A stretch of DNA of 64,000 nucleotides from an uncultured bacterium (lineage in GTDB: Bacteria; Actinomycetota; Coriobacteriia; Coriobacteriales; Eggerthellaceae): positions 3,830-67,829 of the forward strand of contig CALADF010000049.1 of NCBI GenBank assembly GCA_937890835.1, given 5' to 3'. This document shows positions 1-63,517 of the stretch, in pieces; positions within the stretch are counted from its first letter, which is position 1; the number at the start of each line of letters is the position of its first letter. The notes under the pieces were generated by a model, which searched no databases, was not told where the DNA came from, and saw nothing but the letters and a program-made list of their open reading frames with translations. The translations under genes were made by a program, and so were the position numbers.

Positions 1-705
1 ATAGCACACCGAATTGGACTGCGTGTACTTCAACGTGATGAGCGCAACCATCATGTCGATCTTGGCCGTCTCGGGAATGTCCTTGTTCTCGGTCACCACG
101 TTCTCGAGCAGCGCTTCGTTGATCTCGAAGTTGTTGTGGCCCTGCTCGAAGGTGATGCCGAACACGTCCTTGAGTTCGAGCTCGGCGGGCTCGTAGTCGG
201 GGTCGATCTTGACGACGTTGTACTTGCCCTTCTTCTTGGTCTTGAGGATCTCAAGCGCCTCGTCGGTGTAACCGGGTGCGATGATGCCGTCGGACACCTC
301 GAGCTTCAGATAGCGCGCCACGTCGGCGTCGCACACATCGGACAGCGCCACCCAGTCGCCGTACGAGCACAGACGGTCCGCGCCGCGCGCACGGATGTAG
401 GCGCAAGCGATGGGCGAGAGCTCTTCCTCCTGATCGACGAAGTAGATCTGACGGTCGACCTCGGACAAAGGATGTCCCACCGCAGCACCTGCGGGAGACA
501 CGTGCTTGAAAGAAGCCGCGGCAGGCAGACCCGTCGCGATCTTCAACTCGCGCACGAGCTGCCAAGAGTTGAACGCATCGAGGAAGTTAATGTAGCCCGG
601 CTTGCCGCACAGCACCTCGATGGGAAGGTCGGAGCCGTCCTTCATGAAGATGCGCGAGGGCTTCTGATTGGGGTTGCAGCCGTATTTCAGCTCAAGTTCG
701 TTCAT
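1..705 (-). CDS. purH: AICAR formyltransferase (transformylase-only PurH type). N-terminal part only; the gene runs off the left edge.
   Basis: Absent from the ORF track because there is no stop in the window. My reverse-strand translation from the ATG at 705 reads MNELELKYGCNPNQKPSRIFMKDGSDLPIEVLCGKPGYINFLDAFNSWQLVRELK...SFKHVSPAGAAVG..., which is the AICARFT core. An AGGAGA RBS lies just upstream. Confidence 0.8.
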   Translation of the reverse strand, partial: MNELELKYGCNPNQKPSRIFMKDGSDLPIEVLCGKPGYINFLDAFNSWQLVRELKIATGLPAAASFKHVSPAGAAVGHPLSEVDRQIYFVDQEEELSPIACAYIRARGADRLCSYGDWVALSDVCDADVARYLKLEVSDGIIAPGYTDEALEILKTKKKGKYNVVKIDPDYEPAELELKDVFGITFEQGHNNFEINEALLENVVTENKDIPETAKIDMMVALITLKYTQSNSVCY

Positions 706-860
706 GGATTTCTCCTGTTCAGAGTTTCAGCAAAGTAGTAGAAGTCGGCGCGGTCAAACGACGCGACCCACAAGATCGCTCGCGATCCGAGCAAACGTCT
801 GCGGTATCTCCGGCGCCGGCGGGGCGACCGAACCCGAATCGCCGGCGCAGGCGAAGCGAA

Positions 861-1496
861 CTAGTCGCCGAGGTTCTTGTTGTACAGCTTCACATCGCCG
901 CCGACGTTGGCGTACAGCGATACCTTGTTGTCGGCGTTGAGCGCAGCCCAAAGCTCATCGGGCTCGGGCAGGGAGACCTCAATGGGCTCGCCGGCGAAAG
1001 TCGGCAGCGGATTACCATCGCCCTGGTACGTGCTGATGAAATAGCCGGTTCCCGCATCAGCGCCTTCGTAAGCGAAGAACTCGCGCAGGCAGCGACCGCT
1101 TTCCTGATGCTTCAGGATGGACATCTCGAACGATCCGTCGGGGCGGACGATGGCGGAAATACGCGGAGTGAAGTTAGGAGCGTCGGGCTCGTACTCGCGC
1201 TTCATGCAGCCGGCGCGGAAATCGCCCGCCTCGACGATGGTGTCGGTCTGATCACCGTTGGTGACCACGAGATCGTCGCCGAGCATGCGAACGGGATGGT
1301 AGATGATCAGGCTCGGATCCTCGAGCTTCGCCGGATCGTGCGCTTCGGTGCGAATGCCGTCATCGGTCTTCACGAAGACGCGGTTGCGGCTGTTCTGGCT
1401 GCGGCCCATGATGAAGTAGTACACGCGATCGGCGCCCACCACGATGCCGCGTCCGGGATACGGGTTGTTCTCCAGCAGTTCGACGAGATTTTGCAT
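861..1496 (-). CDS. purO: IMP cyclohydrolase, PurO (archaeal-type) family
   Basis: Track ORF 861..1637, trimmed to the internal ATG at 1496 (MQNLVELLENNPYPGRGIVVG...). The NPYPGRGI motif and ~210-aa length fit the PurO-type IMP cyclohydrolase. It sits directly downstream of the transformylase gene. Confidence 0.72.
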   Translation of the reverse strand: MQNLVELLENNPYPGRGIVVGADRVYYFIMGRSQNSRNRVFVKTDDGIRTEAHDPAKLEDPSLIIYHPVRMLGDDLVVTNGDQTDTIVEAGDFRAGCMKREYEPDAPNFTPRISAIVRPDGSFEMSILKHQESGRCLREFFAYEGADAGTGYFISTYQGDGNPLPTFAGEPIEVSLPEPDELWAALNADNKVSLYANVGGDVKLYNKNLGD

Positions 1497-1784
1497 CAGC
1501 ACTCCTTGAAATCGGTTCCAACGCACGCCAAGAGAGAAGCCGACCCGCCGCCAAACGCAAAAGGGCAAGCCACTCACTTGCACGGCTTGCCCAGACGGTC
1601 GGCATTGTATGCGCACCGCTCCCCTGTGGTTACCCACGTCATCCCGTCAGTCACGGCGCGTTCTCTTCGCTCGAAGAATACCACGATCGCGCGTCCCCGA
1701 CCGATCCGATTCGGTCATCATCACAGCTTACCCGGGAGACGACGCCTGGCAAAGCCGTCGACGCGCGACCGCGAACGATCGCGG

Positions 1785-3080
1785 TTACTGCGCTGCGGGC
1801 TTAGGCGAGCCGCAATCAACGCAGAACTTGCCCGTGTTACGCGCCCCGCACCCGCACGTCCACACCTCGGCAACCACAGGCCTCGGCGATCCGCACTCGG
1901 AGCAGAACTTGCCCGCATTGCCGGCATGACCGCAGCGGCACGTCCATTCTCGCGCTGCAGGTTTGGGAGAGCCGCACGCCGTGCAGAACTTCCCCTCGTT
2001 GCCGGCCTGGCCGCACCCGCACGTCCACGTCGGCGCAGGCGCGCTCGCGCCGGCTTGCCCGCCGCTTTGCGCCTGCTGTCCCATCTGGTAGAGATCCTGC
2101 ACGCTCGCACCGCCCGCGCCCTGCGCCATGTTCATCCCCATGAACGCCATAGCCGCGCCACCCGTGTTCTCAGCGGCCGCTTGCATGGCGGCTCCCTGAG
2201 CCCCCACCATGTACGCGGCGGCGAGCGTCGGATCCTTGAACGCCGCGCTGCGCTGCATCTCCTTGATCATTCGCTCGTCCGCCTCGTCGGCCTTCACCGA
2301 GGAGACGCCCACCTGTTCGATCTCGATGCCGCGGTAGTCACGCCACTGCGCGGAGAGCTCCTCCTTCAAAACCTCCGCTAGCTCGCGCGCCTTTCCCGGC
2401 AGCTCGGAGTAGCGAACGCCCATCGCGGAAACCTTCGCGAACGCAGGTTGCAAGGCGGTGAGCAGCTCGCTTTTCAGCTGGCTGTCAAGCTCGGAACGGT
2501 TGTACTCGTCGGCGAAGTTCCCGCACACATTGGCGTAGAGCAGCAGCGGGTTCACCACCTTGTAGCTGTATTCGCCGAAGCACCTGATGGCGATGTCGAT
2601 GTCGATGCCGGCGCGCTCGTCCACCACGCGGAAGGGAACGGGCGAGGGCGTGCCGTACTTGTTCCCGACGATCTCCTTCACGTTGAAGTAGTACACGCGT
2701 TGGTCTTTCGGAGGCTCACCGCCGAAGACGAAGCGCTTCCCCATGCTTTCGAACACCTCGGCGATACCCGAGCCCAGATCGCCCTCGAAAAGGGAGGGCT
2801 CGGTGCCCATATCGTAGACGTACTCGCCCGGCTCGGCGCATACGTCGACCACCTTGCCCTGCTCGACGATGAGCATGCACTGCCCGTCGGCGATGGCGAT
2901 GACCGAGCCGTCGGTGATGACGTTATCGGTCCCCTTCGTGTTGCTCGACCGCCCGGACACGCGCTTGCGACCCTTCACGGCCAGCACGTCAACCGGCAAC
3001 GCCTCGCAGTAGAAGTATTCCTTCCATTGATCGGCCAGGGTGCCGCCCGTCGACCCGACCGCCGCCTTCACCAAACCCAT
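1785..3080 (-). CDS. ydjI: SPFH (stomatin/prohibitin/flotillin-like) domain protein, YdjI-like, with three C-terminal zinc ribbons
   Basis: 431-aa ORF with a GGAGG RBS. The N-terminal ~290 aa are typical of the COG4260/YdjI family. The C-terminus has three copies of W-T-C-x-C-G-x-x-N-x-G-K-F-C-x-x-C-G-S-P-[KR]-P. Confidence 0.8.
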   Translation of the reverse strand: MGLVKAAVGSTGGTLADQWKEYFYCEALPVDVLAVKGRKRVSGRSSNTKGTDNVITDGSVIAIADGQCMLIVEQGKVVDVCAEPGEYVYDMGTEPSLFEGDLGSGIAEVFESMGKRFVFGGEPPKDQRVYYFNVKEIVGNKYGTPSPVPFRVVDERAGIDIDIAIRCFGEYSYKVVNPLLLYANVCGNFADEYNRSELDSQLKSELLTALQPAFAKVSAMGVRYSELPGKARELAEVLKEELSAQWRDYRGIEIEQVGVSSVKADEADERMIKEMQRSAAFKDPTLAAAYMVGAQGAAMQAAAENTGGAAMAFMGMNMAQGAGGASVQDLYQMGQQAQSGGQAGASAPAPTWTCGCGQAGNEGKFCTACGSPKPAAREWTCRCGHAGNAGKFCSECGSPRPVVAEVWTCGCGARNTGKFCVDCGSPKPAAQ

Positions 3081-3173
3081 ATCTGCCTCCTACTCCTGCG
3101 GGCGAGCGCTCGAAAAGCCCGCCCGTCATCGACATCATCGAAACCGCCCGGCAGCACGCCCGACGGGCATTCG

Positions 3174-4037
3174 CTAGAACTTGCCGCTCGTTCCCGAGAA
3201 CCCGCCCGACGAGCTCGATACCGAGCCTCCGCCGCCACCGCCGCCGCTGCTCTTCTCGACAACCACCTCGCGCACCGTCGTCGTGTGCGTGAAGACATCG
3301 CGCCGATCGTCAAGCTGAAGCTGCCCGGAAACGTAGGCGGACGCATTTGACGCGGGTTCGACGGAGCGCATCCTGCGCATCAGAGCCGCCATCACGAGCG
3401 CGGTCAGCACGGCGGCGGCAACCAGCGAACCGCCGATTCCCATCGCTATCTCCAAAAGCAGATCCGTCGCATCCTCAGGCGGGTTATCGTCGGAGAAGGG
3501 GTGACCTGCATCAGCGGCCGCGACATAAACGCCACACCACTTGATGTAATCGCTGAAGCCCTTATACCATTCGTTGTCGGCGAAGTCATCCAGGAAGAAC
3601 CCCGTGAGCAACGCGCGGCCTTCACGGTTGAAGGCGTAGTTTCCCCGGTCCCCGTTGACCGCAACGCTGTAGTCGCGCTCTTTCATGGACAGCATCAGCA
3701 CGATGCCCGACCCATCGCTTCCGTCAAGCGAGAGCTCCTTGTACTTCGCGACCGCCGCGTCGAACACCGATACGGTCGAGATGGCCTTGTAGTCCTCCAC
3801 GGTGACGATGTTGACGCTGAACCCGCGAGTCTGCTCGACCTCGTCGGCCTGCGCTTCCAGCTGCGAGATCTCGTCAGCGGTGAGAATGCCCGCCCCGTCG
3901 TACACGTGGGCGGCAGCCGCGTGGGCCGGCATCGCGATGACGCACGCGCACGCGAGCGCGACCAGCGCAACGCATGCGGCGACGAGAACCGAAGGTCGCC
4001 GAGCCGACGCATGATCCCGCACAAGTTCGCCCCTCAT
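3174..4037 (-). CDS. ydjH: TPM-domain (TLP18.3/UPF0603, YgcG/YdjH-like) membrane protein
   Basis: Signal/TM segment, then VYDGAGILTADEISQLEAQ...IVTVED (TPM fold), a C-terminal TM segment and a Gly/Ser tail. The ATG at 4037 overlaps the upstream stop as ATGA. Confidence 0.75.
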   Translation of the reverse strand: MRGELVRDHASARRPSVLVAACVALVALACACVIAMPAHAAAAHVYDGAGILTADEISQLEAQADEVEQTRGFSVNIVTVEDYKAISTVSVFDAAVAKYKELSLDGSDGSGIVLMLSMKERDYSVAVNGDRGNYAFNREGRALLTGFFLDDFADNEWYKGFSDYIKWCGVYVAAADAGHPFSDDNPPEDATDLLLEIAMGIGGSLVAAAVLTALVMAALMRRMRSVEPASNASAYVSGQLQLDDRRDVFTHTTTVREVVVEKSSGGGGGGGSVSSSSGGFSGTSGKF

Positions 4038-62178: not shown

Positions 62179-62492
62179 GGTGCCGTCCTTTCTCCAAGGT
62201 AATCCGCCGCACAGCGCGACCGCCTGCAAGCCGCAAAAGGGAACCAACATCTCGACGCAGGCGGTCGAAGCCGCGCTTAAGCCCATGATTCACCAACAAA
62301 GATAAACCATTTCGAGGGCAGCGGGGCATTTTAGCGAGATCAACCTCGAATCAACCCCGATTCATACCCTCTCAACCCTCCGATAGCACGTTTTTAACTA
62401 TAAAACGCTCGCTTCGTACCTCGAATCGACCGCGTAAGGTCGGAGATCGGGGAGAGCCGTACCTCATTTAGGACGAGGTCGTTAAAAACATC

Positions 62493-62520
62493 TTGGCAAA
62501 TTCCACGGCGATGCTATAAT
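62493..62520 (+). promoter_or_regulatory. Near-consensus sigma-70 promoter (TTGGCA-N16-TATAAT) with no downstream ORF
   Basis: Read directly: -35 at 62493..62498 and -10 at 62515..62520. Confidence 0.5.
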
Positions 62521-62526
62521 CATTAG

Positions 62527-62642
62527 CGATTTCAGAGAAGCATTTTGGCTTCAGACAGATAAGGATTCTGTTTTTGGAGGGGACAGATTCCTTTGTCTTT
62601 CAAGAGCCGTGACCTGCGTGCAGGTCACGGCTCTTGGCTTTT
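62527..62642 (+). ncRNA. Candidate ~116-nt sRNA (family unknown)
   Basis: Bounded by the promoter above and a 16-bp GC-rich terminator hairpin (62602..62635) followed by GGCUUUU. There is no ATG inside. An internal ~15-bp hairpin presents a UUUUGGAGGGG loop. Confidence 0.45.
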
Positions 62643-62872
62643 CATGGAAAGGTCGGGGCGTGGGACGTGGTCGGGATCGGGCGCTGCGAGCCCTTTCCCC
62701 TTCGGGACGGCCTTTTCCGGTCGAGATTCGGCGTTATGCGCGGCTTTCCACGGGAAACCGCGCGGATTTCGACCCGAAGCGCTCACATCGCCCTCCCAGA
62801 GACCACGCCAAGGCTCATATCGCGACATCTCGACCAGGCAGCACCGAGACCCCTCAGCGGCAGACCCCGCAT

Positions 62873-63469
62873 CTACAACGGCCGACGGGCCTCCAAAGCG
62901 CGTCCGAGCGTCACCTCGTCGGCGAACTCGAGATCACCCCCCACGGGAAGACCGCTTGCAGGACGCGTGACCTTAATGCCGAAAGGCTTGATGAGGCGCG
63001 CGAGATACGCGGCGGTGGTCTCCCCCTCTATGTTCGGGTTGGTCGCAAGCACCACCTCCGAAACATCCTCGGAAGACAAGCGCTTCATCAGCTCGGCAAT
63101 GCGCAGGTCCTCAGGCCCGACGCCCTCCATAGGCGAAAGCGCCCCGCCAAGAACGTGGTAAACCCCCGAGAACACCGCCGTGCGCTCGATCGGCGGAATA
63201 TCGCGAGGCTCGCTCACGACGCAAATCGCGCTTCCGTCGCGCTTGCCGCTCGCGCATATCTCGCATAGATCGCCTTCAGCGTAGTTGAAGCAACGACTGC
63301 AGAACCGCACCGTGTTCTTCACCTCGGCGATGGCCTCCGCAAGACGCATGGCCGTCGCACGATCCGAGTTCAATATGAAATACGCCATGCGCTGCGCCGA
63401 CTTCGGGCCGACTCCGGGCAATCGCTCAAGCTCGTCGAGAAGCTTTTGTATGGAAGGCGCTGACTGCAT
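62873..63469 (-). CDS. recR: Recombination protein RecR
   Basis: [20 protein letters not shown]..., a C4 zinc finger ([16 protein letters not shown]) and a Toprim region. GGGAGG RBS. Confidence 0.95.
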
Positions 63470-63485: not shown

Positions 63486-63517
63486 GGTTGGGTTGGGTTG
63501 GGTTGGGTTGGGTTGGG
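63486..63517. repeat. (GGTTG)6 pentanucleotide microsatellite, i.e. (CAACC)6 on the recR sense strand
   Basis: Read directly. Six perfect units plus GG, ending 17 nt upstream of the recR ATG and adjacent to the SD. Confidence 0.97.

Follow-up and report, generated by a model that had tools for sequence, protein, structure and literature searches.

The 64,000-nucleotide stretch of Eggerthellaceae DNA analysed here (the window) very probably contains a real structured sRNA gene at 62493-62643 on the plus strand. Comparison of sequences across the family makes it very likely that this gene is previously undescribed, specific to the Eggerthellaceae and present once per genome. In the mechanism that we propose, a strong sigma-70-type promoter with an extended -10 element would drive a stand-alone non-coding sRNA of ~118 nt, its own Rho-independent terminator would end transcription, and a covarying long hairpin would act as the scaffold presenting an invariant GGAGGGG(A/G), the putative working part. 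Modelling suggests that this GGAGGGG loop probably pairs with C-rich regulatory RNAs of the same genomes. A sequence-only reading of the window had predicted an independent promoter-terminator unit for a non-coding sRNA of ~116 nt, and the conserved promoter, covarying stem, invariant loop and own terminator, seen across at least 32 genera, argue that this prediction was right.

Anatomy of the transcription unit

The features of the unit, in the order of their positions in the window, were as follows.

62484-62488, plus strand: A-tract, UP-element-like, directly upstream of the -35 box; a GAAAAAA-type A-rich run lies at the same position in most of the 14 genera of alignment A2
62493-62498, plus strand: -35 box TTGGCA; TTG retained at the same position in most relatives
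62512-62520, plus strand: extended -10 element TGcTATAAT; TATAnT invariant in 14/14 aligned genera
62526-62643, plus strand: predicted sRNA transcript, ~118 nt; the covariance-model match begins at 62526; fold z = -7.6
62537-62552, plus strand: short 5' hairpin GAAGC/GCUUC of the MFE fold; GCUUCG more than 90% conserved
62554-62601, plus strand: main hairpin, 17 modelled base pairs; compensatory changes across homologues
62571-62583, plus strand: apical loop UUUUUGGAGGGGA, identical or nearly so in BLAST and model homologues, with a variable 5' half in divergent genera
62576-62582, plus strand: invariant heptamer GGAGGGG, unchanged in every homologue examined, the lowest-scoring included
62600-62642, plus strand: intrinsic terminator, a 17-bp GC-rich stem (62600-62637) with a 4-nt loop, then GGCUUUU

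The promoter matched 11 of 12 consensus positions, with a 16-nt spacer separating the -35 box from the -10 hexamer TATAAT (62515-62520) and a TG at 62512-62513 providing the extended -10. Both strands of the 64-kb window were scanned and this was the sole sigma-70 match of at least 11/12, confirming the earlier claim that TTGGCA-N16-TATAAT was the best promoter match in the window; a consensus scan of 60-64 kb likewise listed it alone as promoter-like. We infer that the A-tract upstream of the -35 box acts in the manner of an UP element. Alignment A2, which holds sense-oriented sequences of 14 genera, contained an A-rich stretch, a TTG-type -35, the invariant TATAnT mostly accompanied by TG, a conserved 5' segment (CGAUUUAC..., GCUUCGG) and a long hairpin whose stem varied while its loop stayed constant. 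The promoter spacer (TTGTGATTTCGTGGAGA...) was unusually conserved in several genera of this alignment, and the window's own spacer differs. This conserved spacer could be an operator overlapping the promoter.

The ends of the predicted sRNA were placed by the spacing to the promoter (5') and by the U-tract (3'). The resulting 118-nt RNA had a predicted fold of -57 kcal/mol, and its z score was calculated against dinucleotide shuffles, of which 0/200 were as good. The 3' end was earlier described as a 16-bp perfect GC-rich hairpin followed by GGCTTTT. The palindrome (AAGAGCCGTGACCTGC / GCAGGTCACGGCTCTT, 62602-62617 / 62620-62635) and the U-run (62639-62642) were both present; however, with a gap of just 2 nt between the arms, the innermost of the 16 pairs cannot form. 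The resulting stem has 15 Watson-Crick pairs closing a 4-nt loop and is extended to 17 by two outer pairs. The sequence GGCUUUUC follows, and the 17-pair stem runs into CTTTTC. Read on the minus strand, the hairpin leads into GAAAGAC without a U-tract, and the terminator therefore belongs to the plus strand. The terminators of relatives were unrelated in sequence and sat in the same place, each with a T-run on the sRNA strand.

Coding potential was assessed from the ORF list and from a scan of 62528-62643. No ATG was present in this interval and the sole long frame was a 125-aa TTG-started ORF (62593-62970) antisense to recR, both as first reported. A coding locus was ruled out by the absence of an ATG, by a 1-nt indel in the loop among homologues (U5 vs U6) and by indels in the stem. 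The TTG ORF was ruled out as a gene because it is antisense to recR and not syntenic.

A covariance-model search of 4 kb against the Rfam 15 families with permissive filters returned at E <= 1 a single match, RF02734 Cgb105 (22.9 bits against a gathering threshold of 163, E = 0.021), and no other family. Cgb105 (Corynebacterium sRNA 105) is likewise an actinobacterial RNA of hairpins and a terminator, but the score is under the family cut-off and membership was rejected, in line with the initial statement that the RNA was not recognised as any Rfam family. A literature search on sRNAs of Eggerthella or Coriobacteriia found nothing on such RNAs, the G-rich sRNA included.

Conservation and genomic neighbourhood

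Homologues were sought by BLASTN with 181 nt against 60 relatives and with a covariance model (R1) built from the 5' part and the main hairpin (82 positions, 17 pairs). Conservation with covariation in related genomes had been named at the outset as a check on the sRNA proposal, and it was found in both respects: BLASTN gave matches in 13 other genera of the same family and none in other families of the order, and compensatory changes were present in 12 of the 17 pairs of the main stem. R1 placed the sRNA in 105/201 Eggerthellaceae genomes and 32/64 genera, as a single copy per carrier except for two copies in one 4%-contaminated assembly. On a sample of 301 genomes of the class, 23/23 matches fell within the Eggerthellaceae. 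An exact scan for CTGTTTTTGGAGGGGRCAG in 185,579 species, with one genome per species, returned 51 loci, 47 of which were named Adlercreutzia, Ellagibacter, Enterorhabdus, Enteroscipio, Parvibacter, Eggerthellaceae or Coriobacteriia. The remaining four (a proteobacterium, Anaerolineales, Desulfuromonadales and Lachnospiraceae) failed the covariance model and were dismissed as chance.

Among 56 distinct homologues, 85% of the cells of the main stem were paired. A covariation score as high as that observed was reached in 0/500 column shuffles, and pairing fell to 40-54% when the 3' partners were shifted by 1-3 columns. Fitting the 56 sequences to the model biases their alignment towards the structure; an independent MAFFT alignment of 14 sequences gave the same picture. 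In some relatives GCUUCG was paired with a downstream CGAAGC instead of forming the short 5' hairpin, lengthening the main stem (pairing judged by eye).

Well-scoring members carried the loop (U)UUUUUGGAGGGG(A/G). Among 18 members of other genera that scored low, the loop varied in its 5' half (GAUCUA, UUAAUA, CUUAUA, GUUUCGU, UUUCGA and others) and the closing pairs CUG/CAG changed to CCG/CGG or CUA/UAG, while GGAGGGG(A/G) was kept. The sequence-only reading had singled out a Shine-Dalgarno (SD)-like G-rich loop as the unusual feature of the RNA, and GGAGGGG proved to be the one element that never varies. The same reading had an imperfect hairpin displaying this loop; the hairpin was found, but the display is incomplete in the thermodynamic model, where GGGG pairs with the loop U-run through four weak U.G wobbles and GGA(G) alone is fully unpaired. 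These wobbles are not kept in divergent members, and the region was therefore treated as loop. GGAGGGG-loop hairpins of the same design, weakly scored or missed by R1, also lay near recR in three more genera:

L136 292-363, plus strand: divergent GGAGGGG-loop hairpin, genus G012
L144 ~700-800, minus strand: divergent GGAGGGG-loop hairpin, genus G033
L145 ~3420-3520, minus strand: divergent GGAGGGG-loop hairpin, genus G010

The G-rich sRNA is thus probably distributed more widely than the 32 genera, judging from these sequences.

The placement between modD and recR was confirmed, with an ORF for a QRPTase-fold (ModD family) protein on one side of the sRNA and RecR on the other, both on the minus strand. 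At most loci the sRNA converged on recR, whose 3' end lay 17-800 nt beyond the modelled part. Other arrangements occurred. At L005/L067, L039 and L041 the sRNA lay just downstream of recR on the same strand with its promoter intact, and in several large genomes recR was not found within 1.5 kb. In one complete 3.6-Mb genome (G116, locus L070) the sRNA was unlinked to recR, with its promoter (TTGTGA-N17-TATAAT) and terminator intact. Here it sat between a gene for a multi-pass membrane LuxR-type regulator (317-1435, plus strand) and a 372-aa transposase-like ORF (1705-3081, minus strand). An insertion may have broken the usual sRNA-recR synteny in this genome. Because orientation and recR linkage vary while promoter and terminator are kept, the unit is autonomous and not a by-product of recR termination.

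It is extremely improbable that there is no gene here, with the hairpins being a recR terminator region and the promoter match fortuitous. The usual position of the unit, convergent on recR and 50-300 nt from its stop codon, would fit such an explanation, as would the failure to detect a separate minus-strand terminator in the 227-nt gap between the sRNA terminator and the recR stop codon (62646-62872). However, the U-tract is confined to the plus strand, the -10 box is invariant across genera, the stem covaries around a fixed loop, and units with an intact promoter are also seen co-directional with recR or unlinked to it. The comparative sequence data already contradict this explanation. The U-tract on the sRNA strand and the same-strand and unlinked arrangements also speak against the hairpin acting only as the recR terminator in the opposite orientation, the alternative raised when the unit was first noticed. 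Read-through from recR may run antisense to the sRNA gene in the window's genome, but with the orientation of the sRNA relative to recR varying this cannot be the conserved function, and cis-antisense control of recR was rejected as such because orientation and linkage both vary. A pentanucleotide repeat, (GGTTG)6, was also observed at 63486-63517, immediately upstream of the recR ribosome-binding site.

Candidate partners of the GGAGGGG loop

The sequence complementary to the invariant loop, (U/C)CCCCUCC, led to a second family of RNAs. In the window's genome (G000), 148 non-coding CCCCUCC sites were listed; contig C16 had three of them within 100 nt, and contig C35 a similar cluster. Each cluster coincided with a candidate sRNA:

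G000:C16:3726-3870 (= L148 ~927-1071), minus strand: C-rich sRNA candidate, outside the window in the same genome
G000:C35:243739-243875, minus strand: paralogue of this C-rich sRNA candidate, outside the window in the same genome

Both candidates are ~140 nt, start a few nt after TATAAT or TATACT, and are predicted to form three hairpins and a terminator. Their C-rich motifs lie in the first loop (UUCCCCUCCAC on C16 / AACCCCCUCCGC on C35), in a single-stranded linker (CAUCAUCCCCCUCCUC / CACAUCCCCCUCCUU) and in the terminator loop (UACCCCUCC / CUCCCCUC). The C16 copy has three CCCCUCC and the C35 copy two, plus CCCCUC in its terminator loop, all predicted unpaired. The C16 copy had no match in Rfam. 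BLAST found homologues of the C-rich sRNA in 8 other genera, often two per genome, and in alignment A7 CAUCAUCCCC and the following UCC were invariant in the family. A covariance model (R2) detected 1-4 copies in 137/201 family genomes and 44/64 genera, often in tandem clusters. The family motif CCCCUCCUU also resembles the 16S tail.

The motif (U/C)CCCCUCC matches GGAGGGG(A/G) as a perfect complement, and this complementarity explains two invariant G's of the loop that the 16S tail leaves unexplained. Predicted duplexes of the loop with the six C-rich motifs had energies of -15 to -18.5 kcal/mol, and as a partner of these motifs the loop ranked within the best 1.2%, 3.8%, 6.1%, 6.6%, 7.1% and 17% of 1,831 ribosome-binding windows. 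Depending on the motif, as many as 17% of ordinary ribosome-binding sites thus pair as well as the loop, and an SD-like loop complementary to SD-targeting C-rich sRNAs would be expected anyway; the match is therefore suggestive but unspecific. Both motifs are invariant, which leaves no room for covariation from one RNA to the other. Accessibility of the loop for pairing is partial, with GGGG wobble-paired in the model, and there is one G-rich site per sRNA against three C-rich sites per C-rich sRNA.

The two families also co-occurred. Among the 201 genomes 101 had both RNAs, 4 the G-rich sRNA only, 36 the C-rich sRNA only and 60 neither (odds ratio 42, Fisher p = 6e-21, phylogeny ignored), with C-rich presence in 101/105 G-rich carriers counted at a cut-off of 0.001. 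For two of the four G-only genomes, other members of the genus carry the C-rich sRNA. In the remaining genus G089, G-only at the cut-off, has a divergent C-rich copy of the same design at 24.9 bits. In G002, a 100% complete carrier of the G-rich sRNA, no C-rich sRNA was detected at E <= 0.1. By these counts the G-rich sRNA appears nearly nested within the carriers of C-rich sRNAs, as a dependent partner would be, though a trait shared by a clade may alone account for the co-occurrence.

The SD-like core of the loop also raises the ribosome itself as a partner. The 16S 3' end was canonical (GGAUCACCUCCUUUCU) in four complete relatives, rejecting an unusual anti-SD in the Eggerthellaceae, and was not found in the window's own MAG; the family tail is given as GAUCACCUCCUUUCU, including CACCUCC. 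An SD mimic binding the anti-SD tail in the 30S subunit, which would make the sRNA a ribosome decoy or ribosome-associated RNA, is favoured by the perfect pairing of GGAGG with CCUCC of this tail, by the 7/8 pairs that GGAGGGGR can form with UCACCUCC, where either A or G in the final position still pairs with U, and by a U-rich 5' side of the loop that is similar to S1-binding enhancers. We nevertheless consider such a mimic quite improbable. The invariant G in the sixth position stands opposite an A of the tail, where U would pair, and the U-rich 5' flank faces U's. The usual SD of the window's genome is AAAGGAGG and its commonest heptamers at ribosome-binding sites are GAAAGGA, AAGGAGG and GAAGGAG; the two letters ahead of genomic GGAGG are mostly AA, able to pair with UU of the tail, where the loop has U's, and those after it are AA, TG or AG with no preference for GG. 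Given this usage and the mismatch to the tail, selection for anti-SD binding would be expected to yield AAAGGAGGU and not UUUGGAGGGG, and from sequence alone neither the 16S tail nor the usual SD seems to account for the two further G's that never vary and for the U-rich 5' side. A broader version, in which an abundant free-standing SD decoy would have no other role than to occupy both the 16S 3' tails on 30S subunits and the anti-SD-mimicking C-rich sRNAs, strikes us as very improbable; if true, it would set global translation-initiation capacity in the Eggerthellaceae.

Direct regulation of mRNAs, with the GGAGGGG loop binding C-rich mRNA stretches and the C-rich sRNAs uninvolved, is somewhat unlikely. 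An invariant apical-loop seed is typical of base-pairing sRNAs, and a few leaders have a CCCCUCC able to pair with a downstream SD, e.g. C17(-):33226 and C44(-):3755; there the loop could bind the CCCCUCC 'anti-SD' that sequesters a gene's ribosome-binding site and so activate translation as an anti-antisense. However, CCCCUCC was not enriched between -100 and +20 of 1,833 predicted genes (15 sites vs 4-14 for permuted heptamers), and a duplex ranking of the 1,833 leaders was noisy with no outlier target, both statistics relying on crude GC3-based gene calls (1,863 ORFs covering 88% of the genome). C-rich partners had been suggested earlier as something to look for; no mRNA stood out, and the C-rich sRNA candidates with their CCCCUCC motifs are the best candidate partners. 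Nearly all occurrences of the extended complement CCCCUCCAAAAA in 121 family genomes were the sRNA gene itself. A trans target with the long complement CCCCTCCAAAAA was likewise rejected, these genomes containing essentially the sRNA gene alone; the few extra matches were terminator-plus-RBS sequences on the other strand. A leader with a C-rich stretch just upstream of its SD, CCCCCUCCCCGAUCGAAAAGGAGACCCCAUG, was seen at two contig ends of the window's genome (C29:47 and C45:24985), and its sequence suggests that it is probably a repeated gene, perhaps mobile. It is unlikely that the hairpin presents GGA or GGAGGGG to an RNA-binding protein, either titrating it by the CsrB/RsmZ logic or serving as its cofactor. 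CsrA/RsmE proteins classically recognise a GGA displayed in a small apical loop, GGA is the only part of this loop predicted to be fully unpaired, and a strictly invariant 7-8 nt on a variable scaffold suits protein recognition. Against this, no candidate protein was identified, and CsrA (PF02599) was absent from the window genome and 20 relatives (21/21 genomes) while control genomes scored. CsrB and RsmZ sponges also show GGA in a hairpin loop, but they have many such hairpins and work with CsrA, whereas this RNA has a single one, and a CsrA sponge was rejected on both counts. A sponge of 6C RNA was rejected as well, as 0/21 genomes reached the 6C cut-off.

Our preferred reading, held tentatively and by analogy, is that the G-rich sRNA is a RosA/RsaI-like decoy or partner of the C-rich sRNAs. 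The GGAGGGG loop would base-pair with the (U/C)CCCCUCC motifs in the loops and linker of the multi-copy C-rich sRNAs, and the G-rich sRNA would act as an SD-mimicking decoy or sponge, competing with the ribosome-binding sites of mRNAs for these RNAs. The direction and consequence of the regulation are those we infer from this arrangement.

Relation to known sRNA systems

The Eggerthellaceae (Eggerthella, Adlercreutzia, Gordonibacter-like genera, Ellagibacter and others) live in the gut and are of interest for their metabolism of drugs and polyphenols, and a literature search on their RNA regulators found almost nothing. The analysis adds two conserved sRNA families absent from Rfam, one G-rich and single-copy, the other C-rich and multi-copy, with covariance models and exact coordinates. 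The G-rich sRNA is restricted to one family, and its putative kind, a base-pairing or sponge sRNA, is unsurprising; its anatomy is well supported and the modelled mechanism is plausible. The G-rich sRNA and the C-rich family would form a directly testable two-RNA circuit that opens up RNA-based regulation in a medically relevant gut family, and if the two RNAs pair they would provide a compact, testable entry into post-transcriptional control in the Eggerthellaceae.

The design of the C-rich family is that of the C-rich SD-targeting RoxS, RsaE and FsrA of Firmicutes and of 6C in other Actinobacteria. RosA (S345) of Bacillus subtilis is a G-rich stand-alone sponge of the C-rich sRNAs RoxS and FsrA (PMC8216469). 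RsaI (RsaOG) of Staphylococcus aureus, as summarised in the same source, has G-rich tracts that pair with the C-rich motifs of RsaE, RsaG and RsaD and is a proposed sponge (PMC8216469). With RosA the predicted RNA described here shares a free-standing gene that has a sigma-A-type promoter and a Rho-independent terminator of its own, and a putatively single-stranded G-rich region that complements the probably RBS-targeting C-rich regions of sRNAs in the same genomes. Its promoter and terminator, conserved in 14 genera and independent of the orientation of the neighbours, agree with what is expected of the sponge class as far as sequence can tell; its single conserved G-rich site does not, as RosA has three such sites and RosA and RsaI have two or three G-rich regions. 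It also differs from RosA in size (~118 nt vs ~229 nt), in having no sequence or Rfam relationship to it, in coming from the Coriobacteriia (Actinomycetota), in that its pairing is predicted only, and in that CcpA-type control is not evident. RsaI is similarly a stand-alone sRNA with G-rich tracts complementary to C-rich motifs of other sRNAs, but it has its own C-rich region for mRNA targets and a pseudoknotted fold, and the RsaOG family of Rfam gave no match to the window RNA at E <= 1 in the 4-kb search. If the two RNAs pair, the circuit of a C-rich sRNA plus a G-rich sponge known from Firmicutes would have arisen independently in the Coriobacteriia.
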